25,666 nucleotides of DNA from Candidatus Aminicenantes bacterium (GTDB lineage: Bacteria > Acidobacteriota > Aminicenantia > Aminicenantales > Aminicenantaceae). The stretch is taken from contig JAUWVG010000001.1 of NCBI GenBank assembly GCA_030617525.1, forward strand, positions 1-25,666. The letters are read 5' to 3'. Within the stretch, counting starts at the first letter, position 1. Each line of letters opens with the position of its first letter. Made by a program: the position numbers and the translations under genes. The notes below the pieces were generated by a model. That model saw nothing but the letters and a program-made list of their open reading frames with translations, ran no database searches and was not told the origin of the DNA. This document shows, piece by piece, positions 1,001 through 24,279 of this stretch.

Positions 1001-1079
1001 GGCTGTAAAATGGAGAAACACCCATTACATAAAAAGTGTGTCTGAAAAATCACTAAAAATGATGAAACTCGTGCAACGT

Positions 1080-1100
1080 TTGTGTGAAGATTGTGTGAAG
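1080..1100 (-). promoter_or_regulatory. Perfect 10-bp direct repeat, 11-bp period; putative OmpR-family binding site for the C1 unit
   Basis: TTGTGTGAAG at 1080-1089 and 1091-1100 (minus CTTCACACAA x2, plus a weak third copy CGTTGCACGA), upstream of HK1, where the other units carry their repeats. Confidence 0.6.
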
Positions 1101-1104
1101 TATA

Positions 1105-1377
1105 TTATTTTATTGAAAAATAGATTTCCTTTCGGTGTCCAATTCTTATGATTATGATGAGAAAAAACTCTTTTTCTTTTTTGAAAATCACCCTGTAGCT
1201 TCCGACTCTTAATCTGTATAAATCTTCTTTAACCCCGCTCAATCTTTTTATGTTGTTTTTTAGAACTTCGGGATTCTTGGCCAGTATGAGAAGTTTTTCC
1301 TTCATGATTTTTTGTTGGGCTCTATTGATTTTTTCTAGATCCTCTAGAGCTTTTCCAAGAAATTTGAGCTTATACAT
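1105..1377 (-). CDS. relE: Type II toxin, RelE/StbE family (90 aa)
   Basis: MYKLKFLGKALEDL start, YRLRVGSYRVIF and IGHRKEIY motifs typical of RelE mRNA interferases. Start reassigned from 1401 to ATG 1377, 2 bp after the antitoxin stop. Confidence 0.9.
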   Translation of the reverse strand: MYKLKFLGKALEDLEKINRAQQKIMKEKLLILAKNPEVLKNNIKRLSGVKEDLYRLRVGSYRVIFKKEKEFFLIIIIRIGHRKEIYFSIK

Positions 1378-1379
1378 CT

Positions 1380-1604
1380 TTACATTCCGAGCTTCTTCCA
1401 AACCTCCTCTGCATCAATAAGTTTATCGCGGCCCTTTTCCAACTCTTTCATTCGCTTCTCTGCAAGCTTGATATCCAAAAGATCAAAATATACGGTGAGA
1501 GCCTTTTCTATGATTTTACTCTTTTTTTCACCCAACTCTTCAGCCATAGTCTCGAGCTCATTAGAAACTTCTTCATCGAGTGTGATGTTATGTCTTGTCT
1601 GCAT
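1380..1604 (-). CDS. Type II antitoxin, ribbon-helix-helix (CopG/RelB-like) (74 aa)
   Basis: MQTRHNITLDEEVSNELETMAEELGEKKSKIIEKAL (beta-strand plus two helices) and C-terminal IDAEEVWKKLG; AGGAGG 6 nt before ATG 1604; directly upstream of relE. Confidence 0.85.
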   Translation of the reverse strand: MQTRHNITLDEEVSNELETMAEELGEKKSKIIEKALTVYFDLLDIKLAEKRMKELEKGRDKLIDAEEVWKKLGM

Positions 1605-1629
1605 ATCAAACCTCCTATTCAAGCATCTC

Positions 1630-3963: not shown

Positions 3964-4026
3964 AATATAGCCATTTCCTAAGCTGATGTTGTCAAACAAA
4001 AGTCAAAGAATGTAAAAGATTGTCAT
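3964..4026 (-). promoter_or_regulatory. P2 promoter: four phased TT(G/T)AC(A/T) repeats plus -10
   Basis: Minus strand ATGACA (4026-4021), TTTACA (4016-4011), TTGACT (4006-4001), TTGACA (3995-3990); periods 10, 10, 11; TATATT (3969-3964) 20 bp after the last repeat. Confidence 0.7.
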
Positions 4027-4712
4027 TTCCCAAGGAAACGATATCCTTCCCCGTAGACCGAAAGAATGTACTTAGGTCGGGATGGATCCTCTTCGACTTT
4101 TTTCCTCAATTTCAGGATATGATTGTCGATAGTCCGGGTGGTTGGAAATTTCTCATAACCCCAGATCTTGTCGAGAAGCACATCCCTTTTCACCACTTCT
4201 CCCTTGTGAGCGATAAAATATTTAAGAATCTCGGCCTCAAGGGACGTCAAATCCGACTCCTTCCCTCTCCGTCTGATCTTAAAGAAGGTAAAATCGATTT
4301 CCAGATCTTCCAGGCGATAGATATCAGGAACTCTTTTATTCTCCCGCGTCTCCCTCCGGAGATGGGCTTTGATCCGGGCCAGGAGCTCGCGGATGCTGAA
4401 GGGTTTGGTCATATAGTCGTCGGCACCGATCTCGAGTCCTACCACTTTATCCACTTCTTCTCCCTTGGCTGTGAGCATAATGATGGGGGTACTGATATTC
4501 TTCTTTCTCAACTCCCGGCATACCTCCAGTCCGTCCATTTTTGGAAGCATAATGTCCAGGATAATCAAATCCGGGATTTCTTCCTGTGCTTTCAAAAGAC
4601 CTTTCGAACCGTCATCAGCCCAGATCACTTCATATCCCTCATCGATGAAGTTGAGTCTCAGCCCTTTCACAAGATCTTGTTCGTCTTCGATAATGAGAAT
4701 TTTCTTTTTCAT
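4023..4712 (-). CDS. RR2: OmpR/PhoB-family response regulator (229 aa)
   Basis: Receiver ILIIEDE...LIILDIMLPKMDG...LTAK...GADDYMTKPF; winged helix RTIDNHILKLRKK...SVYGEGY. Confidence 0.97.
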   Translation of the reverse strand: MKKKILIIEDEQDLVKGLRLNFIDEGYEVIWADDGSKGLLKAQEEIPDLIILDIMLPKMDGLEVCRELRKKNISTPIIMLTAKGEEVDKVVGLEIGADDYMTKPFSIRELLARIKAHLRRETRENKRVPDIYRLEDLEIDFTFFKIRRRGKESDLTSLEAEILKYFIAHKGEVVKRDVLLDKIWGYEKFPTTRTIDNHILKLRKKVEEDPSRPKYILSVYGEGYRFLGK

Positions 4713-4716
4713 TGCC

Positions 4717-6816
4717 CTAATCCTCTAATGTTTCGGAAACCGGAATGTACACGGAAAAAACAGAACCCTTTTCCGGCTCGCTGTCTACACAAATCTCTCC
4801 GCCATGCGCCTCGACTATATGTTTGACCAAGGTCAATCCCAAACCGCTTCCCTTACTCTCAGAGGTCGTCCGATTCTGCAGGCGGTAAAATCTCTCAAAA
4901 ATCCTCGATCTAGCCTCAGGGGAAATCCCAATTCCACGGTCAGCAACTTGGAATCCGATACAATCATCCTTCCTGTAGACCGTTACTCTCACCTCTTTTT
5001 TCTCAGGGGAAAACTTCATGGCATTGCTCAGCAGATTGATCAGCACACTGGCTATGGCCTCCTTATCAAAAACAATATCAGGAAGGTCAGAGGAAATCTC
5101 TTCTACAATTGAAAACCCCTTCTTTTCAAGATGGTAGCGGTAGGATTCTAAAGTATTCTGGATAACATTAGCCAGGTTTCCCTTTTTAAAGTCAAACTCT
5201 TTCCTGCCCATCTCAATCCTGGAAAAATCGAGGATATTGTTGATCATATGGGATAATCGCTCGCTCTCTTTGGTGATGATCTCATAGGCTTCGCGCCTGT
5301 CTTTATCGGATAGATTTTCCTTCCGCTGGAGGGTCTCACCGTAGAGTCGGATCAATGTCAGAGGTGTCTTCAGCTCGTGAGAAACATTATGAACAAATTC
5401 CGTTTTAAGCTGCGTTGTTTCTGTTTCTCTGGATACATCGCGGACAATCAGCAGAACACCTATAAACATAAGGACGATGATGACACCAAGCAGGATCCCG
5501 TAGAAGAACTTCTCACGTCGAGCGGTTTTCTGCAGGTCATGGAAAGCATCCAAAGAAGCGATAAGCTTCCATGGCAGGAGAATATTCCGGAAGGACAGGG
5601 ACAGAGAATCCTTTGAGATCCCCCCCTCCTGTTCAGGGGATGTAATTCCGGTTTTTTCATCCAGGACAGACAGCAGAAGCCCTGAATCCTCTGAGATATC
5701 CTTTAATAATTCAGGCAGAACTTCTGACTTCAATAAATCCAAATCCCACACAAAACCTCCGAAAAATGTTTCGCCCGATTCCGTTGGAGGAAGAATACGA
5801 TAGGATATGAGCTGCAGATTCCCATTTGACGAAGTCAAGAATCGATCGGACTGGGATGTCTCTCCACTCCCATAAACACCTCTTCTCTCTCGAATCCTTG
5901 GAACAACATCGTTATTCAGGAAATCGATAATCTGCAATTCAAGGAGAAAGGATGATGGTAGGGCAATCAGGTTTTTATATTTTTCCCGCAATTCCGGAAA
6001 TTTCTGGTTTTCAAACGCTGGAACTAGAAGGGAATCTATTTCGGAAATGAAAAATCTAACTGAAGGAGAGTTCATAGGCCAATCTCCGTTCCACAGTTTT
6101 TTATAGGCATCGAGGAGTGTTTCTAATCCCTCTTCTTCTTTATTCTGATCTTTATGAATATCATATAGTTGAATCGACGCCACAAGGCCGTAGGGATGTC
6201 CAACCTTATTCCTCAGCTGCCCATAGTCCCGGGCTAGTTTATCGTAGGTGTCCCTGGCTCTATCGAAGTTTTTGGACAAGAGGAACGATCGGGCCAATCC
6301 TTCAAGAGAGAAGGCCTGATTCTGTCTTGATGTCGCAGCCTCAAAACTTTTCTGATAGTCTTCAGTCGCCTTCACATAATCCTTCAAGGAAAATTCGTAT
6401 CGACCAGCCCTCGAAAACAAGGTCTCAAACCGAGGTTCTGACAACGCCAAATCGATGGAATCAATTGATAATTCGAAGGATAAATATTTCGGGAACACGA
6501 TCTTATAATCCTCATCAAGGATGAAGTCTCCTCTTGCTAATTCTGTTGAATTCTCCAGGGTAGAAAATTTTTCCGGCCTGAGGGCCTGTTTCTCATACTC
6601 GAAAAGCCTGTCCTCGAGGGATTGGAGAGCGGCCTGACCTGAGGTCCAGAGACTGGACTCAAGAAGCCTGCTGACAGATTCCAGTCTCTTGGCAAAAGTG
6701 CTGAAACTCAGATACCCGACGATCAGGGTGGGAAGAAAGATAGCCAAGAGAAAAATGACAATAGTTTTCCTCTTGTGAATCATCCGCGGGAAAAACGGTT
6801 TTTTCGCTGACTTCAA
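4717..6816 (-). CDS. HK2: membrane sensor histidine kinase with TPR-like extracytoplasmic domain
   Basis: Two TM segments; H-box VSHELKTPL; N-box NLLSNAMKFS; DRGIGI, FERFYR, GSGLGL. The track start 6843 lies at the likely transcription start; TTG 6816 has GGAG 5 nt upstream and ATG 6783 is also possible. Confidence 0.95.
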   Translation of the reverse strand: MKSAKKPFFPRMIHKRKTIVIFLLAIFLPTLIVGYLSFSTFAKRLESVSRLLESSLWTSGQAALQSLEDRLFEYEKQALRPEKFSTLENSTELARGDFILDEDYKIVFPKYLSFELSIDSIDLALSEPRFETLFSRAGRYEFSLKDYVKATEDYQKSFEAATSRQNQAFSLEGLARSFLLSKNFDRARDTYDKLARDYGQLRNKVGHPYGLVASIQLYDIHKDQNKEEEGLETLLDAYKKLWNGDWPMNSPSVRFFISEIDSLLVPAFENQKFPELREKYKNLIALPSSFLLELQIIDFLNNDVVPRIRERRGVYGSGETSQSDRFLTSSNGNLQLISYRILPPTESGETFFGGFVWDLDLLKSEVLPELLKDISEDSGLLLSVLDEKTGITSPEQEGGISKDSLSLSFRNILLPWKLIASLDAFHDLQKTARREKFFYGILLGVIIVLMFIGVLLIVRDVSRETETTQLKTEFVHNVSHELKTPLTLIRLYGETLQRKENLSDKDRREAYEIITKESERLSHMINNILDFSRIEMGRKEFDFKKGNLANVIQNTLESYRYHLEKKGFSIVEEISSDLPDIVFDKEAIASVLINLLSNAMKFSPEKKEVRVTVYRKDDCIGFQVADRGIGISPEARSRIFERFYRLQNRTTSESKGSGLGLTLVKHIVEAHGGEICVDSEPEKGSVFSVYIPVSETLED

Positions 6817-6847
6817 CTTTGCTCCAAAATAAGCAGATATCAACTCA

Positions 6848-6889
6848 ATTATATCGAAGAAAACCCTTGAAATGTCAAAATAATGTAAA
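6848..6889 (-). promoter_or_regulatory. HK2 promoter: TTTACA-N5-TTGACA plus TATAAT
   Basis: TTTACA (6889-6884), TTGACA (6878-6873), 19-bp spacer, TATAAT (6853-6848); TTTTACATT.TTT is shared with the P2 promoter. Confidence 0.7.
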
Positions 6890-6917
6890 AAAAAGGACGG
6901 CCCACGAATGAGCTGTC
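6887..6917 (-). terminator. Intrinsic terminator after P3 (degenerate copy of the shared hairpin)
   Basis: Minus strand GACAGCTC-attcgt-GGGCCGTC (one mismatch, one G-U) followed by C and T8. Confidence 0.7.
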
Positions 6918-6940
6918 ATCAGCAACCGCCCTTTTGCGGC

Positions 6941-9061: not shown

Positions 9062-9171
9062 TTTTGTTCCTCCATCATGTGACATTCCAATAAAATAAAC
9101 ATAACGGAGGATGTTTGTGTTGAGGAATTATGGAAAATTTGTGAAAAACCTTCCACATGGAGACACTTCAT
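9058..9171 (-). CDS. Possible 37-aa small ORF between RR3 and P3
   Basis: AAGGAGG (9188-9182) 10 nt before ATG 9171; MKCLHVEGFSQIFHNSSTQTSSVMFILLECHMMEEQK; its TGA overlaps the P3 ATG (ATGA). It also crosses the putative P3 promoter. Confidence 0.25.
   Translation of the reverse strand: MKCLHVEGFSQIFHNSSTQTSSVMFILLECHMMEEQK
9092..9148 (-). promoter_or_regulatory. P3 promoter: phased TTCC(A/T)(C/T)A repeats plus -10
   Basis: TTTCCATAATTCCTCAACACAAA (9136-9114), 19/23 identical to the HK3 upstream motif; extra upstream TTTTCACA; TATTTT (9097-9092) 22 bp after CTCAA. Confidence 0.65.
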
Positions 9172-9187
9172 GTTTTTAATTCCTCCT

Positions 9188-9874
9188 TTAATCTACAAAT
9201 TTATAACCGATACTGTGGACACTTTTGATATGTTTGGGTTTAGAAGGATTATCCTCGATCTTCTTCCGGATGTGAGCCATGTGGCTGTCCACGGTTCTGT
9301 GTGAAACCGCCAGGTTGTCGGCACCCCAAACACTATCCAGAAATTCATCTCGGCTTATGACCTGTCCTTTTCTATCAATCAACAACTTAAGAATCTTTAG
9401 TTCCAGGGGAGTTAAACGCAAATCTAAACCATCCTTACGGGATTCATATTTTTGAAAATCCAATTCCACACTCCCAAATCTATAGAGTTTTATTTCATTT
9501 TGATAATCCTCAACCCGGCGAAGCAAAGCCTTGATCCGGGCGGATAGCTCCTTGAGACTAAAGGGCTTAGTGACATAATCATCTGCACCCAACTCCAATC
9601 CCAAAACTTTGTCCACTTCCTCATCTTTGACAGTCAACATCAAAATCGGAGACGTCACTCCCTCCTGGCGCACTCTCTTACAGATCTCAAAACCATCCAT
9701 CAGGGGAAGCATCACGTCCAGGATTAAAAGATCCGGCTTTGATGCTAAGGCCAACTCCAATCCCTTTTCTCCATCGGCGGCTGTTGTCACATCATATCCC
9801 TGCTCAGAAAGTGCATCCTGGAGGATCACTCGGATGCCGGCATCATCTTCTACAATTAGAATTGTTTTTTTCAA
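9188..9874 (-). CDS. RR3: OmpR/PhoB-family response regulator (228 aa)
   Basis: TTG start after GGAGGTGAG; ILIVEDD, LLILDVMLPLMDG, GADDYVTKPF; RTVDSHMAHIRKK, SVHSIGY. Confidence 0.97.
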   Translation of the reverse strand: MKKTILIVEDDAGIRVILQDALSEQGYDVTTAADGEKGLELALASKPDLLILDVMLPLMDGFEICKRVRQEGVTSPILMLTVKDEEVDKVLGLELGADDYVTKPFSLKELSARIKALLRRVEDYQNEIKLYRFGSVELDFQKYESRKDGLDLRLTPLELKILKLLIDRKGQVISRDEFLDSVWGADNLAVSHRTVDSHMAHIRKKIEDNPSKPKHIKSVHSIGYKFVD

Positions 9875-9877
9875 AAC

Positions 9878-12013
9878 TCACTCACCTCCTTCTCGGATAG
9901 GGAAAATAAGTGATACGCGACTTCCCTCTCCGGGACGGCTCGAAACAACAACTTCCCCTTCATGAGCAGCCATTATATGTTTTACCAAAGTCAATCCAAG
10001 GCCGGTGCCTGTCGGAGAGATCGAGGAAGCTTTTTTTCCACGATAAAATTTTTCAAATATTTTCTTCTGTTCATTCTCTGGAATTCCAATTCCTTTATCC
10101 ACCACAGTAATCTCGACCATTTCCCCTTTCCGCTCGACAAAGACTTCAATTTTCTTCTCTCTCTGTGAAAATTTGGCTGCATTGTCCAGGATGTTGTGAA
10201 AAGCCTGGTTCAGAGCTTCTTCATCTGCATAAACAGGAAAACTATTGTTTTCCATTTGAAGCTTTACATTAAAACCTGAAAGTTTGTGCTCTTTTTCAAA
10301 GCTTTCTACTTCCTGTCGAACCAATCTGCCGATATCGATGGATATTGGCCTGTATTTCCTTTTGCCTTCCTCGATTTTTGTAAAGTCAAGGACATTCAAA
10401 ACGAGTCTCTTTAGACGGTCGGAATCATGCCTAAGAATTCTGTAATATTCCCGGATTTTGTCCGGATTTTTTATTTTACCGTCCTGAAGATGCTCCAAAA
10501 TCGCTCCCATGGATGTCAGAGGAGTTTTAAATTCATGAGAGACAGAAGCAATAAATTCAGATTTCAACTGCAGGAGATTCATCTCCTGTGCAAGTAAGCG
10601 GATAATAAGGCTTGATCCAAAAAGCAGGATCACAAGTAGAGTTAAAATCATCCAGAAAAAAATATTTTCATAAAGAACAAATCCAGATCCCATTGCTTCA
10701 TTCTTATAAAGCTCCACTCTCCATGGCGGAAAATTATCTAGGAAGAGATCGGTAAAAATCGGCTTCTTACTCTCTGCGTCCTCTTCACCGAAGACAATTC
10801 TTCCTGTTTGATTGGAACGCATAAGAACTGAGATTCCAGATGGGGTGTTCTCTGATAACAAAGTGTCTGCATTTATTGTTAGATCATTTGCACCAAAAAT
10901 AGTTCCAAGGAAATCCATTCGAAAACCTTGATTGGGTCCATTTAAGGGTACAGATATCAAAAAAACTTCCTCTCCCTCAAACATTAAAACATTTTTCAAA
11001 ATCGGGAAGTTGGCTCCTTGTATACGATCCAAAATATCTTCTCCATAGGGCAAAACATCCTGTACCGCAAATTCGGCAAGGCGTCCTATATGCAGTTTCT
11101 TTTCCACTTTATTCTGAAAATCAATCACAGCGGCCAAAAAACCTTCTGGATAAACATCTTCTAATTCTTTAGCGACTACATTATTTATCATTTCTTTAAG
11201 TGTGTCCGCATAGAGTTTGACCTGACTTATATCCAGAGACCAAACTTTCTTTTCGAGACGTACATAGGTCTCAAGCGATTCCTTGAACAAGGCCTCAAAA
11301 TTATCAGATGTATAAAGAATATTCAGCATTTCGAGGCGGGAGACAAACTCTAGAGAGCGGCCGGACTCCGTGAGAAGATCCGGAAAAGAATCGATAAGAG
11401 ATCTGTAGACAACCAAAGCCTGCTTGTTGCCCGCTTGCTTTACCTCACACCGTGCAATGCGGCTTAAGATCCATGCACGGACTTTGTCGTTATTAGATCT
11501 GCTCAGTACTTGGCGGTATTGAGAAATCGCATTTGAAAAATCTTTTTGTTGAAATTCTGCCCTCTCGGCCTCATTAAGATTTGGTTGAATAGTCTTCCAT
11601 TCATCAGGTTCGAGTATTGTTTTTGAGGTTAGAGGAAAAACCTGATAAACAGGCAGCCAAAGTTCCCCCTTTTTGTTCCAGATAACAACTTCTCCAAAAA
11701 AAGAATCCCTTTGCTGAACACCAACAATTGATTCTCTAATCTCAGAATAGCCAGCATCAGAAAAAATTTCACTGTTAGCAAGCCCCATCAAATCCGTTGA
11801 TTGTGTTTCGACAAAATCTTGAATATCCTTCTGCACTGAACTGACATAGCCCTTGTGCTCCTCAAGAGTCTGCTGTTGGATCTTAAATTTTTCATTGCGC
11901 AAAGCCCGCATTCCAAAAAAGGCCAGGAAAATCGAGGGCAGAAATACCACAACAAAAAAAATTGAAAGGATTTTTCTGTTTTGAGATAAGACGAGTTTGA
12001 GATTATTTAGCAT
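9878..12013 (-). CDS. HK3: membrane sensor histidine kinase with TPR-like extracytoplasmic domain (711 aa)
   Basis: Two TM segments; AERAEFQQKDFSNAISQY...ILSRIARC; VSHEFKTPL; NILDNAAKFS; DKGIGI; FEKFYR; GTGLGL. Confidence 0.96.
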   Translation of the reverse strand: MLNNLKLVLSQNRKILSIFFVVVFLPSIFLAFFGMRALRNEKFKIQQQTLEEHKGYVSSVQKDIQDFVETQSTDLMGLANSEIFSDAGYSEIRESIVGVQQRDSFFGEVVIWNKKGELWLPVYQVFPLTSKTILEPDEWKTIQPNLNEAERAEFQQKDFSNAISQYRQVLSRSNNDKVRAWILSRIARCEVKQAGNKQALVVYRSLIDSFPDLLTESGRSLEFVSRLEMLNILYTSDNFEALFKESLETYVRLEKKVWSLDISQVKLYADTLKEMINNVVAKELEDVYPEGFLAAVIDFQNKVEKKLHIGRLAEFAVQDVLPYGEDILDRIQGANFPILKNVLMFEGEEVFLISVPLNGPNQGFRMDFLGTIFGANDLTINADTLLSENTPSGISVLMRSNQTGRIVFGEEDAESKKPIFTDLFLDNFPPWRVELYKNEAMGSGFVLYENIFFWMILTLLVILLFGSSLIIRLLAQEMNLLQLKSEFIASVSHEFKTPLTSMGAILEHLQDGKIKNPDKIREYYRILRHDSDRLKRLVLNVLDFTKIEEGKRKYRPISIDIGRLVRQEVESFEKEHKLSGFNVKLQMENNSFPVYADEEALNQAFHNILDNAAKFSQREKKIEVFVERKGEMVEITVVDKGIGIPENEQKKIFEKFYRGKKASSISPTGTGLGLTLVKHIMAAHEGEVVVSSRPGEGSRVSLIFPIREGGE

Positions 12014-12043
12014 GAATTTCCATGCCTTTTATTTCACAAATTC

Positions 12044-12088
12044 ATACTATATCAGGAAACCTAGTTTTATGTTAAGGAAATGTGGAAA
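12044..12088 (-). promoter_or_regulatory. HK3 promoter: TTCC(A/T)(C/T)A repeats plus -10
   Basis: TTTCCACATTTCCTTAACATAAA (12088-12066); TAGTAT (12049-12044) 22 bp after CTTAA, with overlapping TATAGT (12051-12046). Confidence 0.65.
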
Positions 12089-12096
12089 TCCAAATA

Positions 12097-12129
12097 AGGA
12101 AAGGGACGACCCATAATTGAGCCGTCCCT
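12097..12129 (-). terminator. Intrinsic terminator after P4
   Basis: Stem AGGGACGGC/GTCGTCCCT (12129-12121 / 12110-12102, one G-U) followed by TTCCTTATTT. Confidence 0.8.
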
Positions 12130-12149
12130 ATCAATCCCCCTTTACGGGC

Positions 12150-16022: not shown

Positions 16023-16054
16023 CAAAAGCCTCCTGTGATTTTCATTTCAGGAGA

Positions 16055-16120
16055 ATAATAATGTTTTTTTTCCGGTTTGTGGTTAAGGTTAAACAGAGTT
16101 TGCATTGAGTTTCAGTGGAG
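16055..16120 (-). promoter_or_regulatory. P4 promoter: four CTCAA-like repeats at exact 11-bp period plus -10
   Basis: CTCCA (16120-16116), CTCAA (16109-16105), CTCTG (16098-16094), CTTAA (16087-16083); TATTAT (16060-16055) 22 bp downstream. Confidence 0.65.
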
Positions 16121-16126
16121 ATAATT

Positions 16127-16807
16127 CTATCCCTCGAATCTATGCCCAACTCCTCTGATGCTGACAAGGTACCGGGGTTGAGAGGGATCCGGTTCGATCT
16201 TTTTCCGGAGATGAACGATGTGGGAATCAATGGTCCGGGGAGAGATGATGGCATCACCCCATGCCTCATCGAGAAGGTTGTCCCTAGTCACGACCTCCCC
16301 TTTACGTTCGATAAAGAATTTCAGAAGCTTAAATTCCAGGGCTGTCAGATGGATTTTTTCTCCGGCTTTTAAAACTTCATGGCGCTTAAAATCAACCGAG
16401 ACCTCTCCAAATTCAAAGACATCCCCGGTCTCCTTCTCTATTCCGGTCCGCCGCAGGATCGCTTTCACACGGGCGACCATCTCTCGTGATCCCACTGGCT
16501 TTGTGACATAGTCATCCGCGCCCATTTCCAGTCCCATAACTTTATCCATCTCCTCTGTCTTTGCCGCTGTGAGCATAATAATGGGCGTCCTCACATTTTC
16601 CTCTCTCAGTTTCTTGCAGATTTCAAAACCGGTGAGTTCCGGGAGCAGGATATCGAGAATGATGAGATTAAACTCCTTGCTTTTAGCCAACATGTAGCCC
16701 TCTTTCCCATTATCGGCAACGGCAACTTCATATCCCTCAAATTCCATGTCGTCCTTCAATCCCATCAGGATGGTTTCGTCATCCTCTACGATTAATATTT
16801 TAACCAT
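16127..16807 (-). CDS. RR4: OmpR/PhoB-family response regulator (226 aa)
   Basis: ILIVEDD, LIILDILLPELTG, GADDYVTKPV; RTIDSHIVHLRKK, SIRGVGH; overlaps the HK4 stop by 8 bp. Confidence 0.97.
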   Translation of the reverse strand: MVKILIVEDDETILMGLKDDMEFEGYEVAVADNGKEGYMLAKSKEFNLIILDILLPELTGFEICKKLREENVRTPIIMLTAAKTEEMDKVMGLEMGADDYVTKPVGSREMVARVKAILRRTGIEKETGDVFEFGEVSVDFKRHEVLKAGEKIHLTALEFKLLKFFIERKGEVVTRDNLLDEAWGDAIISPRTIDSHIVHLRKKIEPDPSQPRYLVSIRGVGHRFEG

Positions 16808-18938
16808 GATTTTTTCCTTTTTGTGAAATCGGAAGTTTGAGTATCACTCTGGTTCCCTTGTCCAAATCACTCTCTAAAATTACTTCGCCTCCATGGGCTT
16901 TGACAATATGGTCAACAAGAGTGAGGCCAATTCCGCTTCCCTCGATGTTTTTTTGGGTGGGATCGACAGATCGATAAAATTTTTCGAACACTTTTTTTAG
17001 TTCATCTTTGCTGATTCCGACACCCATATCCTGAACCTCCAATAAAACAACTTCTCCCTCGAAGCGAGCTCGGAAATATATCAATGGATCCTTTCCCGAA
17101 TATTTGACAGCATTGTCAAGCAGATTAAACAGGGCCCTGGAGATCCCTTCTTTGTCTGCATGAATAATTGGCAAATGGTCAGATATCTCACATTCCAAAG
17201 TCACATGTTTATCAGCAACATATTCCTCGAACCTCTGAATAACATCCTTGACCAGTTCCCCAACACCCATCTCTTCAAAAAGGTATTTCTTCATCCCGGC
17301 CTCTATTTTTGAAAAATCGAGCATATTCTCGATAAGCCGGCTTAGACGTTCACTTTCTTTGCTGATCTTTCCATAATAAATGCTTTTCTTATCCTCTCCC
17401 TTCACTCGCCCTGAATCGAGCATCTCGGAGAGATAGCGGATGGACATTAAGGGTGTTCTGAATTCATGGGATACAGTAGAGACAAATTCCGATTTTAACC
17501 TGGCCAACTCCAACTCTTTGGCAGTACTCTTGATCGCCATAAATCCACCGAAAAATAAGACGGCCATTACAACCACAACGATAAGGATATAGACATTTCG
17601 CCTCAGGTTGTACTGCCGATCCGAAGCATTCGGATATTTCTGGAGTATGTGGATTTGCCAGGGAGGGAAATCCTGATCGAATCCCAAAACAATAGGCGAG
17701 CTGAGACCGTCCGCTAAAGAATCCAAAACCTCTTCTCCTAAAACAATGTGGCCGTCGGAATCGACAATTTGAAGCAACCAGTCCTCAGGGATCGGGAGTT
17801 TATCCAGAATTTGTGGGAATCGTTCTTCAATCAGAACGGAGTTGTCTATACGGATTCCCAGGATAATGTCATTTTGGACAGTTGCAGCAGTGATGAGAAA
17901 CAAATTATCACCTAAGATCTCAGAAAAACGGGAAAATTCATTGGCCTTGCTGTTAAGCCCGAATAATCTGGCTTGAACAAGGGGAATGATCTTTTCTATC
18001 AAATCCTCCTCCGCTGTCAATTCTCCGAGCTTGGCATCTGCCTGCTTTTCGAATTCATCCCATCGATTCTTGAAATCCACATCCTCCGATGCACCCCTCC
18101 ATTCAGTTTTCCATGTCTCCCCCATTTTATTTATAATGCTTCGATAAAACTGAAACTGTGAATTGTCCAGGGACCATTTAGGGCCCTCCAGGCGGCTGTA
18201 GAATTCCAATATAATTTGTCCTGTTTTTTCAGGCTCAGTCTTTTGAGTAATGGTACCCATCTGAAAAAAAGCGATGATCCCAAGGGGCACGCCTTCAGAA
18301 CTCATCTCATTGGAAAAATCTTCAAGGATTGTATTGTAGGTGTTTATAGCTTGGTTGAGATTTCCCAATTTTTTGTAGCATCTAGCAAGGCGATTTAAAA
18401 CCAGAGCCTTGGAAGAATCATCCTGAAACGAGTTTGCTAATGTTTTATAGGACTGAATGGCCAGAGACAAATTTTGAGTTACAAGCTCAGCCGATTCCGC
18501 CGTTTTAAAGAGTCCGAAACTCTCAATTTTTCCTAGATTGAGTCCGGCAAGACGCCTCCTTTCTGATGTGAGAAACAGAGGGCTCTTGAGAGGAAAAACC
18601 AATTCGCTGTCCGCCCCGGCCAGAAAGATATCACCAATGAGAGCTTCAGTTTCAGCGCCCAGACAGCAGGCCTCTGACAATTTTTGTATGTCCTGCTGTG
18701 TTCGAGCATCTGATACAGCAGTCGTTATCTTCTCTTCAATCTCCGAAAAGAGGGAGTCGATTTCACCGGTCAAAAGAGAGGCATATCTCTGCTGCTCTCT
18801 TTCAAGGTCCCTCTCTCGTGCAAGTTTTTCCCTCTCTGCTTCCCGGACAGCTAGAGTGGTCAAAAAAAAGCCTAAAACTAGAGTGAATCCGGCAAGTAAA
18901 ACAACCGATCTTCTCTGCCAATTCAGTTTAAAGACCAT
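16800..18938 (-). CDS. HK4: membrane sensor histidine kinase with TPR-like extracytoplasmic domain (712 aa)
   Basis: Two TM segments; AESAELVTQNLSLAIQSY...LNRLARCYKK; VSHEFRTPL; NLLDNAVKYS; DMGVGI; FEKFYR; GSGIGL. Confidence 0.96.
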   Translation of the reverse strand: MVFKLNWQRRSVVLLAGFTLVLGFFLTTLAVREAEREKLARERDLEREQQRYASLLTGEIDSLFSEIEEKITTAVSDARTQQDIQKLSEACCLGAETEALIGDIFLAGADSELVFPLKSPLFLTSERRRLAGLNLGKIESFGLFKTAESAELVTQNLSLAIQSYKTLANSFQDDSSKALVLNRLARCYKKLGNLNQAINTYNTILEDFSNEMSSEGVPLGIIAFFQMGTITQKTEPEKTGQIILEFYSRLEGPKWSLDNSQFQFYRSIINKMGETWKTEWRGASEDVDFKNRWDEFEKQADAKLGELTAEEDLIEKIIPLVQARLFGLNSKANEFSRFSEILGDNLFLITAATVQNDIILGIRIDNSVLIEERFPQILDKLPIPEDWLLQIVDSDGHIVLGEEVLDSLADGLSSPIVLGFDQDFPPWQIHILQKYPNASDRQYNLRRNVYILIVVVVMAVLFFGGFMAIKSTAKELELARLKSEFVSTVSHEFRTPLMSIRYLSEMLDSGRVKGEDKKSIYYGKISKESERLSRLIENMLDFSKIEAGMKKYLFEEMGVGELVKDVIQRFEEYVADKHVTLECEISDHLPIIHADKEGISRALFNLLDNAVKYSGKDPLIYFRARFEGEVVLLEVQDMGVGISKDELKKVFEKFYRSVDPTQKNIEGSGIGLTLVDHIVKAHGGEVILESDLDKGTRVILKLPISQKGKNHG

Positions 18939-19067
18939 TTTTAAAAAGCTTTCAGACTTATTCTTAACCTTCCAATTATTTTTCCTCAGCCCCTAAGTCG
19001 TACAGAGAAAACAGTATAACGTAAGTATCAAGATGTCAATTCTGTCCATCCTCCAATTTGTTTCCTC

Positions 19068-19120
19068 AGTATAGAACAAGTTCAAGCTTTTTATGTTGAG
19101 AACAGGTTGAGTTTGAGTGG
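19068..19120 (-). promoter_or_regulatory. HK4 promoter: CTCAA-N6-CTCAA plus -10
   Basis: CCACTCAAACTCAA (19120-19107), 13/14 identical to the P4 upstream CCACTGAAACTCAA; second CTCAA (19100-19096); TATACT (19073-19068) 22 bp downstream. Confidence 0.65.
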
Positions 19121-19196
19121 ATTTTTTTTCGGAAGGCTTTCGCCTTCGACCGCCATTTCAAAGATTATGGATACGAGATCCATCCTCCCTTATAAT

Positions 19197-19229
19197 AGAA
19201 AGGGGACGGTCCCCGAAAGAACCGTCCCC
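19197..19229 (-). terminator. Intrinsic terminator after P5
   Basis: Perfect 9-bp stem GGGGACGGT (19202-19210)/ACCGTCCCC (19221-19229), then TTTCTATT on the minus strand. Confidence 0.8.
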
Positions 19230-19250
19230 AGCAATACCCCTTTTAAGGAT

Positions 19251-21419
19251 TTATTTTTTGTCTTTAGTTTTGGGCAGGAAGTTTTCCATCACCCAGACAT
19301 CTTTGATTCTATGGTTTGAACCGAAAACAATTTTTTCTCCGTCAGGATGAACCGACATCCAGAGGATATTATCTTTATACACTCCGAGTTTCTGCAGGTT
19401 TTCTCCTGATGCAGATATACGCCACAGATCATGGGAATCTCGCTTCGGCAGTCGATAAGAGGCAAAAATGAGTTCCTGGCTTTCGGGCATCCAGGCAATT
19501 GTTGAAATCTGCTCTCCTCTTTCCTTCATTCTGAATATCTCTCTGGGTTCTCCTCCAGCAGTGGGTACAATCATAAGAACCGGTGACCAGCCTTTATTGA
19601 ACGCCAGCCATTCTCCGTCAGGAGATATGGCCAAATCGTGAGAAAAAAAACTATTTCGTCCGACTATATAACTGGGATTGAACTCACCTCGGCAGATTTC
19701 CTTTTTTTCTTTGCTTTTAAGATCATACTTTATGATTTGTCCGTATTCTTTTTGAGGATGCTGATAGGTATAGAAAATCTGTTTTCCATTGAGTGCCCAC
19801 TCCGGTTCACTGACAACATCATTGGATTCGAATTGAATAATGGATGAGATTCCACCAGTTTTTACATCCACCAAGTAAAAACCCTCTTGATCTATTTCAG
19901 CGCTTCCAACAACCAGAATGGAGCGCCCATCAGGAGACCATCGTGGTCCCCAGATATATCTGAGTTCAGGAATAATTTCATGTTCATCACCGGTCTCCAG
20001 ACTGCGGATACAAAGCGGATGTTTTGCATATCCGGAATCTCGGTTCGATACATAAGACAAATATTTGCCATCGGGGGACCATTCCGGAAAGACATTTCTA
20101 CCCACAAAACGTTGTATGGCTTTAACAGGAGGAAATTGAATTTTTTCTCTCTTTGAGTCAAAGTCAGCCGTAAAAATATCCCTTAAATTGCCTACCAACA
20201 AATAATGGAATGAGTTATCTTTAGTAAATCCCAAAGGCCATAAAGTTCCAATGTCACTTTTAATCAACCGTAGATCTCCATGAGGACTTCCTTCTTTCAC
20301 ATCAGCAGCCCACATATCCCTAGTTCCGGATCGTTTACTGGCAAAAATAACCGTTTTCCCATCATTGGACCATCCCAAGGTCAGGTCATCTTCCGGATGA
20401 TCATTCAGAGAGATTTCACTGCTTCCATCCACCGCCAGAAGAGAAATATCACGCTTTCGAGAGTCTCCTTCGGGAGAAAAATCTCCGGCTATGTATTTGC
20501 CATCGGGTGAAAAGAGGCCCAATCTCCTCGGCTCACTTGTGGGAGGAGAATCATATTCTTTAAGCACGCGCATGGATCCGTCTTCGACAGAAATCAAAAC
20601 TGCCTGATAAGCCATGTATTTTTCACCAATAACTGCAAATATAAGCTTGCCATTGGGAGACCAATCAACGGGGTGTATTTGTTTTTTATCAGCCGTCTTA
20701 TAAATCACTCGAGGTTCATCAAGATCAGGTCCGATAATGCACAATTCAGAGGACTGCTTCCTATTAAAAGTAACTTGGTTTCCGTCAGGAGACCACACAG
20801 GAAATCCACCTTTTATGGGAGTTTGGTTTGTTTGTTTGATGGATATTTTCCCTTTGTCTTGTAAGAAATCCTTTGTAATAAGACATCTTTTTTTAGTGGA
20901 AAATTGGAAGACGCCTAAATTACCCTCAATATCCGAAAAAGACAGGAATTGACCATCAGGAGAAACCCTGCCCAGATTTCCTCTCCCCAAGGGGGGAAAT
21001 TCCCAAACCTTTCGAATCCTAAACTCTTTATCACTTTTAATAGCAGGAGATTTTGCACTCAGTAGAGCTGATAATTTTTCGCGGGCCAATTTTACGACAC
21101 TGGACTCCGTAGGGTAGTTGTCGATAACCTTCTGGAAGGCGTCCTGTGCCTCCTTTATGCTTTTTTGACCAAATTTTTCGTAGCACAGCCCGATCCGAAG
21201 CTGGGCCTGGGCGGCAATTCTGTGATTGCTGCTGAATTTCTCGATGATTTTCTGATAGAGATCGATGGCCCCTTTCAGATCACCATCCACCTCTTCTTTT
21301 TCAATGGCAGAACGGAGCATAACTCCAGGATCCTCAGTTTTCTGAGAGACCCCAACAATGGATAAACTCACTCCCAAAAAAATAATCAGAATAATTCTTT
21401 TGATCGATTTTTTTTTCAT
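19251..21419 (-). CDS. P5: exported TPR + PD40/TolB-like beta-propeller protein (722 aa)
   Basis: MKKKSIKRIILIIFLGVSLSIVG; TPR GDLKGAIDLYQKIIEKF...AQLRIGLCYEKFG; SPDG repeats; ends VWVMENFLPKTKDKK. Confidence 0.92.
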   Translation of the reverse strand: MKKKSIKRIILIIFLGVSLSIVGVSQKTEDPGVMLRSAIEKEEVDGDLKGAIDLYQKIIEKFSSNHRIAAQAQLRIGLCYEKFGQKSIKEAQDAFQKVIDNYPTESSVVKLAREKLSALLSAKSPAIKSDKEFRIRKVWEFPPLGRGNLGRVSPDGQFLSFSDIEGNLGVFQFSTKKRCLITKDFLQDKGKISIKQTNQTPIKGGFPVWSPDGNQVTFNRKQSSELCIIGPDLDEPRVIYKTADKKQIHPVDWSPNGKLIFAVIGEKYMAYQAVLISVEDGSMRVLKEYDSPPTSEPRRLGLFSPDGKYIAGDFSPEGDSRKRDISLLAVDGSSEISLNDHPEDDLTLGWSNDGKTVIFASKRSGTRDMWAADVKEGSPHGDLRLIKSDIGTLWPLGFTKDNSFHYLLVGNLRDIFTADFDSKREKIQFPPVKAIQRFVGRNVFPEWSPDGKYLSYVSNRDSGYAKHPLCIRSLETGDEHEIIPELRYIWGPRWSPDGRSILVVGSAEIDQEGFYLVDVKTGGISSIIQFESNDVVSEPEWALNGKQIFYTYQHPQKEYGQIIKYDLKSKEKKEICRGEFNPSYIVGRNSFFSHDLAISPDGEWLAFNKGWSPVLMIVPTAGGEPREIFRMKERGEQISTIAWMPESQELIFASYRLPKRDSHDLWRISASGENLQKLGVYKDNILWMSVHPDGEKIVFGSNHRIKDVWVMENFLPKTKDKK

Positions 21420-21439
21420 CTAACTTTACCTCTACCATC

Positions 21440-21493
21440 AATATAACGATTAAAAATCAAATCCGTATCCAGGAAGTGTCCAGAGTTTGTCAA
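21440..21493 (-). promoter_or_regulatory. P5 promoter: three T(T/G)GA(C/T)A repeats at 11-bp period plus -10
   Basis: TTGACA (21493-21488), TGGACA (21482-21477), TGGATA (21471-21466); TATATT (21445-21440) 20 bp downstream, the same geometry as P2. Confidence 0.7.
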
Positions 21494-21498
21494 GATAT

Positions 21499-22173
21499 TC
21501 AGCCTTCAAAACGGTATCCCCTGCCCCTCACGCTGAGGATATACTGGGGTTTTTCAGGCATAGGTTCGATTTTCTTGCGCAGGTTGAGGATGTGAGTGTC
21601 CACCACCCTTTCGGTCACAATAACGGCAGGTCCCCAGGCCGCATCGATCAATTGATCGCGGCTCAAAAGCCGGCCGCGCCTGCGGACAAATGTCTCCAGG
21701 AGGCGGAATTCCAGTGCGCTCAAATTGACAGGCTGGCCGCTGATGCGGACTTCTCCGCGGTCAAAGTCGACTTCGCATTCTCCAAATTGAAATATACCGA
21801 GGGAATCATCCGTGATCCTGCGGAGCAGGGCCTGGATCCGGGCACGCAGTTCCCGGGGACTAAAGGGTTTTGTGATGTAGTCGTCCGCGCCCAACTCTAA
21901 GCCAAGAATCTTTTCGGCTTCATGCGTTTTGGCTGTCAACATGATAATCGGTGTTTTAATTCCCTCACTGCGGAGCTCCCGGCAGACTTCGAATCCATCT
22001 TTTTTCGGAAGCATGAGGTCAAGGATTATCAAGTCCCATTGAGAGTCCTTTCCTAAAAACAAAGCCCTCTCCCCATCACCCACGGTTTCGATCTGGTATC
22101 CATGGCTGGATAGGTCCTCCTCCAGGCCGAGAGCAATGTCTTTGTCATCTTCGACTATCAGTATCTTTGGCAA
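21499..22173 (-). CDS. RR5: OmpR/PhoB-family response regulator (224 aa)
   Basis: Start reassigned from 22260 to TTG 22173 (GGAGG about 8 nt upstream, 4 bp after the HK5 stop); ILIVEDD, LIILDLMLPKKDG, GADDYITKPF; RVVDTHILNLRKK, SVRGRGY. Confidence 0.96.
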   Translation of the reverse strand: MPKILIVEDDKDIALGLEEDLSSHGYQIETVGDGERALFLGKDSQWDLIILDLMLPKKDGFEVCRELRSEGIKTPIIMLTAKTHEAEKILGLELGADDYITKPFSPRELRARIQALLRRITDDSLGIFQFGECEVDFDRGEVRISGQPVNLSALEFRLLETFVRRRGRLLSRDQLIDAAWGPAVIVTERVVDTHILNLRKKIEPMPEKPQYILSVRGRGYRFEG

Positions 22174-22177
22174 ATGT

Positions 22178-24139
22178 TTATCCTCCAGCAGGCAGTTGTA
22201 TTGTAAAGGTACTGCCCTGCCCGGACTCGCTTTCGATTGATATTCGCCCTCCATGGGCATCTACGATATGTTTGACCACGGCCAGTCCGATCCCTGTCCC
22301 TTTGATTCCAAGGTCGCTGGCGTTTGCCCCCCGGACAAACTTCCGGAATATCCGTGACCTCTCGGATGTAGGGATTCCAAATCCCTGATCCCGAACCCGA
22401 ATTGTCACTGGATCGCCTTCCTCAACTTTAACATTAATTTTCTTTTTCTCCCCTGAATATTTCACTGCATTATCCAGAAGATTCCACAGGGCCTGAACAA
22501 GCGCTTCACGGTCACCATCGACTATTGGGCCCTTATCAGGAACGACACATTTAATTACAGTGCTATCATGTCCGGTCTCTTGCAGAAATTCTTCAACAAC
22601 GGTTTTAGCCAACAAGCCGGCATCCATCGGTTCAATTTGATAGGGACGTGCACCCGCCTCCATCCGGCCAAAATCCAGCAGGGATTCCACCAGTCTGGAA
22701 AGTCGACTGGTCGCACGGGCCTGTGCCTGGTAGAAGACGCTTCGCTTTTCTGCTGGAAGGGAATCGTCTTCATTGAGCATCTCTGTGAACTGCCGCATAG
22801 AAGTTAAAGGTGTCCTAAACTCATGAGAGACAGAAGAGACAAAATCCGCTTGGAGTCGGGCGGCAGCCAATTCCCTGGAGACTGCACGGCTGATAAGATA
22901 GCTCAACGTGATAACAAGTAGAGTCAGTATTCCCAATCCCGCTATCATCAGCCTCCGGCGCTGGGCGAACTGGCTCAAATCCGCCTCAAGGTTTGCATTG
23001 ACAAGATTGATGTCCCAGGGCAGTCCGGATACCGAAGCGGTACGGGAAGAAAAGGGAATATCTCCCTCTCGTTTACTGCCGTAGATTAAAGTTCCATCCA
23101 ACTCATACAAACTCACTCTAACCGAACTGAAATCCTCACTATTAAAAAGTGGATCATACCACTGACTTTGCTGATAGAGAGGACCTGAAGCAAAGGCTGT
23201 TATTTCATCATTCGACTTTTGCCAAAGGACAGTGACAGAAATACCATAAAGTGAAAGTGATCTGCGACCTGCTGTCCCCTGTTCCATGTTATTCATAGAT
23301 TCCCTATTCTCCCACAGCCAGACAACGGCATCAGCTAGAGCTTTAGGCCCAAAATCCGTATCAGGCTCCCGTCCCAGCCACTCTTTTGCCAGATCTGTAT
23401 AATAAATGTAAGAGGCACGGTCAAGACGCCAGCGCTTACCTATCAAATCTTCAAACAGACTCTCGGCCTCCTTCTGAAGCTGATCCAAGCTGCCCATTTT
23501 TTTTAGAAGAGAACAGCGGGCACGGCGTGCCACAAGATCAGCGGGAACACCTGAAATTGTCACCTGAGAACCTGAAGCAGAATTATTGAGTTTCTTGTAT
23601 ATATCAAGAGCATCATCCAGCCGGCCGGCCTTTCTGAGGTTTCTAGCCAGTCGAAGTTTTGCTGCCCCCGCTGTAAAGGGATCTCGAGAATTGGATAAAG
23701 GACGCAGGAGTGTGATAGCTCTACTATAATCATTATTCTGGAATTCGGCTCTTTCAGCATCTGTAAAAAGCTGGGATGGAGCTTCATTCCCGGATGGCAC
23801 GATCGGATAGAAAAGCAGTGTTTTTTCCGGCTGAACACGGATCCCCTCAGAATTCATAAAAATCCAGACAAAATCTTCTTTTTGGGCAAAGTCTGTGGTC
23901 AGGGGATTTGCCAATTTCTGCTCTTCGTCCGAAAGGACTTGCTCTATGGCAGCAATGAATCGGTCTGTGATAGCCTCTCGTTTTTCTTCAAGTTGATTCA
24001 CTTCCAGTATTCGGTCCTGCTTCATAAGACGCAAACCCATCCAAATCAGAGCAAAAACAGATATCACTGCAGCGGCCAGGAATAGAAATGTGGTCTTTTG
24101 AGTGATATGCCCCCAGAATCTCCGTGTTTTCACTGTCAA
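22178..24139 (-). CDS. HK5: membrane sensor histidine kinase with TPR-like extracytoplasmic domain (about 653 aa; start uncertain)
   Basis: Two TM segments; AERAEFQNNDYSRAITL...KLRLARNLRK; VSHEFRTPL; NLLDNAVKYS; DQGFGI; GTGIGL. Confidence 0.95.
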   Translation of the reverse strand: MTVKTRRFWGHITQKTTFLFLAAAVISVFALIWMGLRLMKQDRILEVNQLEEKREAITDRFIAAIEQVLSDEEQKLANPLTTDFAQKEDFVWIFMNSEGIRVQPEKTLLFYPIVPSGNEAPSQLFTDAERAEFQNNDYSRAITLLRPLSNSRDPFTAGAAKLRLARNLRKAGRLDDALDIYKKLNNSASGSQVTISGVPADLVARRARCSLLKKMGSLDQLQKEAESLFEDLIGKRWRLDRASYIYYTDLAKEWLGREPDTDFGPKALADAVVWLWENRESMNNMEQGTAGRRSLSLYGISVTVLWQKSNDEITAFASGPLYQQSQWYDPLFNSEDFSSVRVSLYELDGTLIYGSKREGDIPFSSRTASVSGLPWDINLVNANLEADLSQFAQRRRLMIAGLGILTLLVITLSYLISRAVSRELAAARLQADFVSSVSHEFRTPLTSMRQFTEMLNEDDSLPAEKRSVFYQAQARATSRLSRLVESLLDFGRMEAGARPYQIEPMDAGLLAKTVVEEFLQETGHDSTVIKCVVPDKGPIVDGDREALVQALWNLLDNAVKYSGEKKKINVKVEEGDPVTIRVRDQGFGIPTSERSRIFRKFVRGANASDLGIKGTGIGLAVVKHIVDAHGGRISIESESGQGSTFTIQLPAGG

Positions 24140-24191
24140 ATCATCTTTTCTCTACTCTATCCAACACGGCTAAACTTTTCAATCAAGAAAA

Positions 24192-24219
24192 TGTCAAGAC
24201 TCTGTCCAGATTGTGTCAA
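24192..24219 (-). promoter_or_regulatory. HK5 upstream: three T(T/G)GACA repeats at 11-bp period
   Basis: TTGACA (24219-24214), TGGACA (24208-24203), TTGACA (24197-24192); TTGACAcaaTCTGGACA is 15/17 identical to the P5 promoter. No clear -10 at the matching distance. Confidence 0.65.
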
Positions 24220-24249
24220 AAAAAAGGACGGCCCATGGTCGAGCCGTCC
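24218..24249 (-). terminator. Intrinsic terminator after P6
   Basis: Stem GGACGGC (24226-24232)/GCCGTCC (24243-24249) followed by T8 on the minus strand. Confidence 0.85.
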
Positions 24250-24279
24250 CCATCTCCCCCCCTTTTAAGGGCTTATTTT

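Follow-up and report, generated by a model that had tools for sequence, protein, structure and literature searches.

How does a row of paralogous signalling systems, set in tandem on one short contig, direct each regulator to its own genes? The question is raised by contig JAUWVG010000001.1 of a Candidatus Aminicenantes bacterium (assembly GCA_030617525.1; fragmented, 507 contigs, 2.9 Mb, about 78% complete), the whole of which (25,666 nucleotides, 25.7 kb) is called the window here. It holds four complete tandem units with every gene on the minus strand, each made of a histidine kinase gene (HK), a response regulator gene (RR) and a gene for a predicted exported propeller protein (P), and numbered C2 to C5 (HK2, RR2 and P2, and so on). 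Five further complete units, which the initial annotation of the sequence had not seen, lie on other contigs of the assembly, and the family comprises about ten parallel HK-RR-P units in one genome. That annotation had noticed that each unit carries its own repeated motif before the kinase gene and again before the propeller gene, and had proposed that each regulator activates its own HK-RR operon and its own P gene in largely insulated loops. From the sequence comparisons described below, we consider it quite probable that these boxes are operators for the OmpR/PhoB-family regulator of their own unit, with autoregulation.

Unit-specific boxes before kinase and propeller genes

The eight motif strings were each found exactly once, where the initial annotation had placed them. 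In C2 they lie at 6873-6890 before HK and at 4001-4017 before P, and their identity was not counted as their lengths differ. The C3 strings occupy 12066-12088 before HK and 9114-9136 before P, those of C4 19107-19120 and 16105-16118, and those of C5 24203-24219 and 21477-21493, and for these three pairs the reported identities of 19/23, 13/14 and 15/17 respectively were reproduced. Both intergenic regions of each unit were submitted to dinucleotide shuffling (400 trials) and the best ungapped score was recorded: the observed HK/P similarity was matched by 8/400 shuffles for C2 and 4/400 for C4, and by 0/400 for both C3 and C5.

The pairing of the boxes was examined in a matrix of HK-promoter by P-promoter scores, in which the diagonal was compared with permuted pairings. 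For the four window units, the true HK/P pairing was the best of 24 permutations. For nine units of the genome the diagonal reached 106 against 77.7 +/- 6.1 for permuted pairings (p about 3e-5); with the five units that the initial annotation had not seen, the true diagonal score was reached by 3 of the 120 permutations. Extension to 16 units from five related genomes gave 196.5 for the diagonal against 136.8 +/- 8.0 (p at most 5e-6). Similarly, phased repeats with unit-specific shared words were found before both the kinase and P genes in four of the five units outside the window.

We also searched the 2.9-Mb assembly with unit consensus patterns, allowing 0-1 mismatch. These matched the two promoters of their own unit only, with two exceptions, a relic third copy on contig C222 and a box class common to three kinases. 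Near-matches to the C4 and C5 words elsewhere in the genome fell mostly inside coding sequence and were dismissed as chance. The third copy on C222 (6500-6600) is chimeric, with a kinase-type 5′ half joined to a P-type 3′ half, and stands before a relic open reading frame of 15 codons; it looks like the scar of a deleted unit or P gene.

Eleven-bp phase and distance to a -10-like element

The boxes had been described as direct repeats with a period of 10-11 bp, and this agrees with the self-similarity of 20 family promoters, which shows a single peak, at lag 11 (z 8.6; every other lag 2.7 or less), and with the C3 and C4 half-sites, which fit an 11-bp register. C3 alone is weak at lag 11, its TTTCC word recurring at 8 and 22 bp, and the C4 14-mer also holds a copy offset by 6 bp. 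When the register is anchored on the -10-like hexamer, each promoter presents two to four direct copies of an 11-mer of the approximate form TCTYNACAnnn, and the hexamer proximal to the -10 reads TTGACA, TGGATA, TCAACA or TTAACA.

The succession of proximal hexamer, 20 nt and TAnnnT is exact in 12 of 15 promoters, and the gap is 19 or 21 nt in the remaining three; it measures 19 nt at HK2 and, counted from the fourth repeat, 21 nt at HK5. Two spacings had been noted earlier, TAnnnT exactly 22 bp after the proximal CTYAA (that is, hexamer plus 20) in all four C3 and C4 promoters and, for P2 and P5, a TATATT that follows the proximal hexamer at 20 bp. Both were recovered, and they are one single rule (hexamer, 20 nt, TAnnnT). 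Out of sample the rule holds in five of six promoters of other contigs, the sixth being off by 1 nt. In addition, the two promoters of a unit have their variant half-sites in the same order.

Promoters of the pho-box type, which depend on an activator (PhoB, OmpR), are characterised by a spacing too long for sigma-70 alone. The gaps of 19-21 nt observed here are too long for ordinary use of a -35 element and hence fit promoters of this type. A generic sigma-70 scan found promoter-like sites to be no commoner than in shuffled sequence and, of the eight promoters, recognised HK3 and HK5 alone, a result to be expected of promoters without a normal -35. When the whole genome was scanned with a pattern of two degenerate half-sites and a -10, period 11 gave no excess over other spacings; the scan was dropped because the pattern is too loose and coding sequence dominates, the unit-specific consensus searches being informative instead. 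Four metatranscriptome runs compared with positions 5000-24999 returned only two short exact contigs, both inside HK4 and with no 5′ ends, and were uninformative.

Regulator family and recognition helix

RR2-RR5 all carry a receiver domain (PF00072, 101-113 bits, cut-off 30.2) followed by a winged-helix domain (PF00486, Trans_reg_C, 82-87 bits, cut-off 26.2), and the E-D/D-D pair and the LILD, MLT and KP motifs are present in 12/12 aligned RR paralogues. Solved DNA-binding domains matched were those of WalR, OmpR, PhoB and KdpE, with E values from 1e-19 to 1e-9, WalR/YycF, OmpR and PhoB being closest. For named regulators, no curated equivalog cut-off was reached; with the PhoB equivalog TIGR02154, for example, RR2 scored 216.6 bits and RR4 201.9 bits, both under the cut-off of 296.2.

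The paralogous regulators vary mainly in their recognition helix, R-T-[IV]-D-x-H-[IM]-x-x-[LI]-R. With the conserved D and R taken as landmarks, the variable positions are equivalent to PhoB 194, 197 and 200/201; PhoB residues 194, 197 and 201 contact bases in the PhoB-DNA structure (PMC3264566). Across genomes, the box class correlates with the helix signature of the adjacent regulator: K-H-I-[AS]-E goes with the class TTCACACAA in five units, S-H-[MI]-A-H with the unit-3 box in five units, and N-H-I-L-K with TTTACA-N5-TTGACA in three units.

One related genome, G001, separates the regulator from the gene that it would drive. Behind its RR4 orthologue (93% identical) comes an almost identical promoter of the P4 type, and then a propeller body of the P5 type (92% DNA identity), which argues that the promoter follows the regulator and not the driven coding sequence. 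As read from the sequence, this mismatch of promoter and body appears as a stronger natural experiment than the helix-box correlation.

Conservation in related genomes

The initial annotation had held that its proposal should fail if the motifs were not conserved in orthologous units. Sharp footprints were found there, and the proposal survives. In G003, of the same genus, units 5, 4 and 3 all have orthologues, arranged as in the window and with 86-92% identity between the regulators; units 2, 3 and 4 have orthologues in further genomes. The boxes are kept in orthologues down to about 50% kinase identity. In a three-genome alignment of the HK3 promoter, whose kinases are 52-68% identical, two stretches do not vary, a box of 21 nt and a -10 block of 17 nt, and the flanks are unrelated; the HK3 box is also kept at loci L031 and L032. 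The unit-3 box comes in a kinase-type and a P-type variant, and conservation across five genomes holds for each. The unit-2 box, with TATATT at 20 nt, is retained in the orthologue of G028, a GC-rich, order-level relative.

The stretches of DNA homologous to G001 and G003 start only a few bases ahead of the kinase-side boxes, at 19128 and 12092. The boxes might have been part of the upstream terminator block, but this was rejected: HK3 and HK4 orthologues (genomes G003, G001 and G015) keep the boxes without an upstream propeller gene or terminator.

Proposed mechanism and rival readings

On the sequence, the likeliest course of events is that each phosphorylated regulator activates its own HK-RR operon and its own propeller gene. 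We infer that each regulator binds the boxes of its unit and activates from them, that the units are insulated to some degree, and that kinase and propeller protein are in contact, in the following scheme. The two to four head-to-tail half-sites, one per 11 bp, would all lie on one face of the helix, and the proximal hexamer (T-Y-R/C-A-C-A type), 20 nt from TAnnnT, would occupy and replace the -35. Upon phosphorylation by the kinase, dimers or oligomers of the regulator would fill the array and recruit RNA polymerase to the two promoters. The first of them, which immediately follows the strong terminator of the propeller gene upstream, would drive the translationally coupled HK-RR operon in positive autoregulation. 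The second, in the RR-P spacer of 67-102 nt, would lift the exported TPR/propeller protein over its read-through level. With box variants that co-vary with the recognition helix, each regulator would prefer its own promoter pair, and the induced P protein would probably dock via its N-terminal TPR part on the periplasmic domain of the kinase, closing the feedback loop.

The view that each regulator drives its own operon and its own P gene gains from the OmpR/PhoB-type half-sites found at the -35 of both promoters, but its second part, that the loops are largely insulated, holds only in part: the within-unit match is best overall, yet a core and several box classes are shared, and strict insulation is doubtful. 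The following observations all weigh against private operators or against the scheme as a whole. One 11-mer core (approximately TCTYNACA) is common to all units. C2 and C5 both have TTGACA-like hexamers, and HK5 against P2 scores level with the own pair of C2; the proximal CTYAACA is common to C3 and C4; the kinases of C1, C484 and C319 share one box class; and units U29 and U9 have near-identical boxes and helices. Several off-diagonal scores reach or exceed diagonal ones (HK_U29/P_U9 16, HK_U222/P_C5 15.5, HK_C5/P_C2 10.5), and specificity may be quantitative rather than private. In the unit of contig C467, boxes stand before P but not before the atypical kinase, which has a plain sigma-70-like promoter instead. 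The -10 elements were assigned from conservation and geometry, and that of HK5 is ambiguous. In C4 and C5 the arrays are shifted by a whole register (11 bp) relative to the -10 between HK and P promoters, which need not respond alike. Finally, orthologues inherit helix and box together by descent, so that the helix-box link counts as supporting evidence and not as a series of independent events.

The rival that survives best accepts the boxes as regulator sites but joins the units into a cross-regulating network, where regulators of the same class bind each other's promoters. The common family core, the shared box classes (C1/C484/C319, and U29/U9 with their near-identical helices) and the high off-diagonal scores are all as such a network would have them. 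It would also accommodate an array on contig C412 (about 2100-2170, minus strand), where four TTAACA-type repeats in 11-bp phase precede a small secreted protein of about 175 aa, unrelated to the units and with no adjacent regulator gene; from its sequence, this array is possibly an extra target of a CTYAACA-class regulator. Three features speak for separate channels instead. Within-unit matches still beat between-unit matches overall, the order of variant half-sites is preserved within a unit, and, in unit 3, the HK-type variant is maintained in five genomes, as is the P-type variant, a pattern that points to tuned, specific recognition. We give cross-regulation an appreciable chance of being the better description, though one well short of even.

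It is improbable that the regulators bind the boxes but repress, or act dually as in negative autoregulation. The fourth P5 repeat does fall between the proposed -35 and -10, but the arrays stop at the -35 and leave the -10 and the start uncovered, and over a gap of 19-21 nt the TTGACA-like hexamers would make poor -35 elements if unaided. Very improbable indeed is a likeness due to promoter-to-promoter copying (duplication or gene conversion) or to shared sigma-factor or UP elements, with the regulator uninvolved: recombination is active in these arrays and the hexamers of C2 and C5 are those of the sigma-70 -35 consensus, but the likeness is confined to 14-30 nt of phased repeats between differing flanks, the -10 lies 19-21 nt away and not 17, three to four copies stand in 11-bp phase, the boxes are invariant at about 50% kinase identity, and box class tracks the helix of the adjacent regulator.

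Individual promoters of the window

Activation by the own regulator thus remaining our preferred reading, the promoters are given here one by one, all on the minus strand. The HK5 promoter (24154..24221) has half-sites TTGACA / TGGACA / TTGACA / TTGATT in 11-bp phase and a candidate -10 TAGAGT, and is conserved in G003. At P5 (21440..21495) TTGACA / TGGACA / TGGATA / TTGATT follow in the HK5 order, with TATATT 20 nt past the third; G003 keeps this promoter in front of a propeller body of only about 31% identity. The HK4 promoter (19068..19123) is made of CCACTCAA, ACTCAAC and TCTCAACA repeats, 20 nt and TATACT, and is conserved in G001, G003, G015 and L026. The P4 promoter (16055..16121) carries the HK4 leading words one 11-bp register further from the -10, then the proximal CCTTAACC, 20 nt and TATTAT, and is conserved in six genomes, one of them with a P5-type propeller behind it.

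In unit 3, the HK3 promoter (12044..12088) reads TTTCCACA + TTTCCTTAACA, 20 nt and TAGTAT (overlapping TATAGT), and the P3 promoter (9092..9136) TTTCCATA + TTCCTCAACACA, 20 nt and TATTTT. The HK2 promoter (6848..6891) consists of TTTACA, 5 nt, TTGACA, 19 nt and TATAAT, its box being conserved in G015 and in the GC-rich G028, and the P2 promoter (3964..4019) of TTTACA / TTGACT / TTGACA, 20 nt and TATATT. Boxes before HK1 (1061..1100) are TTCACACAA repeats, of the class common to contigs C484 and C319. The kinase-side arrays of C2 and C5 begin within the T-run of the preceding terminator.

Some further elements lie close to these promoters. Downstream of the boxed HK4 promoter, the leader of about 180 nt holds a sigma-70-like TTGACA, about 15 nt, TATACT (19013..19039, minus strand), conserved in G003 and absent in G015; judged by its form, it may provide basal transcription alongside the inducible promoter. 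An 18-codon open reading frame in the same leader was rejected, as it is not conserved (in G003 a stop follows its second codon). A hairpin with a T-run (window 9150-9175), lying past the RR3 stop and ahead of the P3 boxes, is also present in G003; it is possibly a weak terminator or attenuator that would make P3 lean more on its own promoter. Directly past the P2 terminator, TTGACA and TCTTCAACA form a pair 17 bp apart (1767-1795), which may be a relic box or the promoter of a neighbouring toxin-antitoxin pair.

Gene layout of the units

All genes given here are on the minus strand. The HK and RR genes adjoin or overlap, which argues for an HK-RR operon. The first of these, 21499..24139, contains HK5 (22178-24139) and RR5 (21499-22173, with a TTG start behind GGAGG); the second, 16127..18938, contains HK4 (16800-18938) and RR4 (16127-16807), overlapping by 8 nt; HK3 (9878-12013) and RR3 (9188-9874) span 9188..12013; and HK2 (4717-6843) and RR2 (4023-4712) span 4023..6843. 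In the kinases two membrane segments flank a periplasmic domain of about 400 aa, HisKA (H-box HE[LF][KR]TP) and HATPase following directly; the regulators are of Response_reg + Trans_reg_C composition. The closest full-length kinase relatives belong to metagenome-assembled genomes of Candidatus Aminicenantes and Acidobacteriota, and the nearest atlas clusters of the periplasmic sensor are unnamed hypothetical proteins from Acidobacteriota and Aminicenantota.

The P proteins have an N-terminal signal or anchor segment, a TPR part and a PD40 propeller. P5 (19251..21419), P3 (6941..9085) and P2 (1856..3955) are exported TPR + PD40-propeller proteins by prediction, and P4 (12150..16025, 1291 aa) is a predicted exported TPR protein with two propeller modules. 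The P2 propeller is TolB-like and its TPR part CpoB/YbgF-like, both under curated cut-offs. The end of a further propeller gene, P6 (24280-25665), lies upstream of HK5, and the N-terminus of a fifth kinase, HK1 (3-929), at the downstream end of the window.

A strong intrinsic terminator follows every P gene and precedes every kinase promoter. Those after P6 (24224..24251, parting P6 from the HK5 promoter), P5 (19202..19229), P4 (12102..12129) and P2 (1803..1834) were located, and the terminator scan detected none between RR and P in any window unit. An insertion that is also present in G001 and G003 (window 1105-1622) parts the P2 terminator from the HK1 promoter and consists of two genes, one for a RelB-family antitoxin (1380-1622), the other for a RelE/StbE-family toxin (1105-1401).

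Exchange of propeller cassettes and probable docking on the kinase

The conserved module extends from the kinase-side boxes through HK, RR and the P-side boxes and takes in the first 100-120 codons or so of P. What lies beyond, the propeller body, is non-orthologous between close genomes, P being 31-45% identical against 68-92% for kinase and regulator; in G003, P bodies 31-45% identical stand behind regulators 86-92% identical. Bodies are swapped between units and between genomes, while HK, RR, promoters and the P N-terminus stay together. Breakpoints of these swaps fall at about nt 280-370 of P (window 15656-15807, 21111-21143 and 8718; loci L013, L014 and L023).

The window P paralogues are 25-33% identical as proteins, and their DNA is alike in two islands only (68-81% identity), the first at about nt 210-370 of P, the second made of the last 50 nt or so of the gene with the terminator (examples: 15656-15807, 19199-19301 and 24224-24324). 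The islands coincide with the exchange breakpoints and bracket the exchangeable body and, on this pattern, are likely recombination sites.

We modelled a complex of HK4 residues 33-443 with P4 residues 27-135, which scored 0.75, the best control reaching 0.06; in a benchmark, the 0.75 mark was reached by 55/80 solved complexes and 3/110 mismatched pairs. The modelled interface involves HK4 residues 148-268 and P4 residues 31-50, 77 and 84-86, inside the module-linked part. According to this model, which does not discriminate between paralogues, the N-terminal TPR part of P probably docks on the periplasmic domain of the kinase.

Taken together, the units could be modular three-component sensors with exchangeable ligand-binding cassettes, whose bodies are swapped at the two DNA islands, a tentative reading to which we give slightly less than even weight. 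If true, private boxes would keep any incoming propeller under the control of the resident module, and a lineage could redistribute its periplasmic recognition domains over some ten signalling channels that run in parallel.

Significance and comparison with known systems

The value of this family lies in its multiplicity: about ten regulator/box pairs, with each box present twice per unit and orthologues in related genomes. It constitutes a natural data set for mapping winged-helix residues (PhoB 194, 197, 200 and 201) onto half-site bases, and for how duplicated two-component systems stay apart both at DNA and at the kinase-regulator interface. The regulator/box pairs are also candidate orthogonal parts for synthetic circuits. 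Lastly, the boxes anchor the definition of the module, and this anchor exposed both the exchange of propeller cassettes and the probable kinase-propeller contact. In the literature on Aminicenantes, PD40 and two-component modules, we found nothing on an HK-RR-P system.

The mechanism very probably follows textbook OmpR/PhoB logic, in which tandem boxes stand at the -35 and the regulator stimulates both its own operon and a gene next to it. In the pho box, tandem 11-bp direct repeats (core plus spacer) replace the -35 at a fixed distance from the -10, and PhoB activates its own operon and neighbouring target genes. The units resemble PhoB-PhoR of Escherichia coli in their winged-helix regulator of the OmpR/PhoB family, in 11-bp tandem direct repeats at the -35 position with a fixed distance to the -10, in the proposed activation of the own operon and a neighbouring target, and in helix positions that vary just where PhoB contacts bases (194, 197 and 201). 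They differ in that the half-site words are others, the RRs score too low for PhoB equivalogs (202-217 bits, where the cut-off is 296), the kinase has a TPR-like periplasmic sensor of about 400 aa, and each unit has one exported propeller target, about ten paralogous units with diverged boxes being present per genome.

WalR/YycF/VicR provides the best match of the DNA-binding domain (E about 1e-19). A WalR site is a direct repeat of hexamer, 5 nt and hexamer with an 11-bp period, an arrangement that the units share. In contrast, they reach 244 bits against the YycF equivalog cut-off of 340, use other hexamer words, have no YycHI-type partners and stand in a non-essential, multi-copy context.

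Two further systems compare in the logic of the locus. In VanR-VanS, one OmpR-family regulator has sites at PR (regulator-kinase operon) and at PH (adjacent effector genes), and here too regulator sites would lie at two promoters of one compact locus; unlike the resistance enzymes of VanR-VanS, the effector is an exported TPR/propeller protein, the kinase gene comes first and the unit is tandemly multiplied. CpxR-CpxA-CpxP is an autoregulated OmpR-family system whose regulator induces an adjacent exported protein acting back on the kinase sensor. The accessory gene P similarly adjoins its regulator, carries the boxes of its unit and has a product predicted to be exported. Whereas CpxP is a small helical inhibitor encoded by a divergently transcribed gene, P is a TPR/propeller protein of 700-1300 aa encoded co-directionally, whose contact with the kinase is a modelled one.

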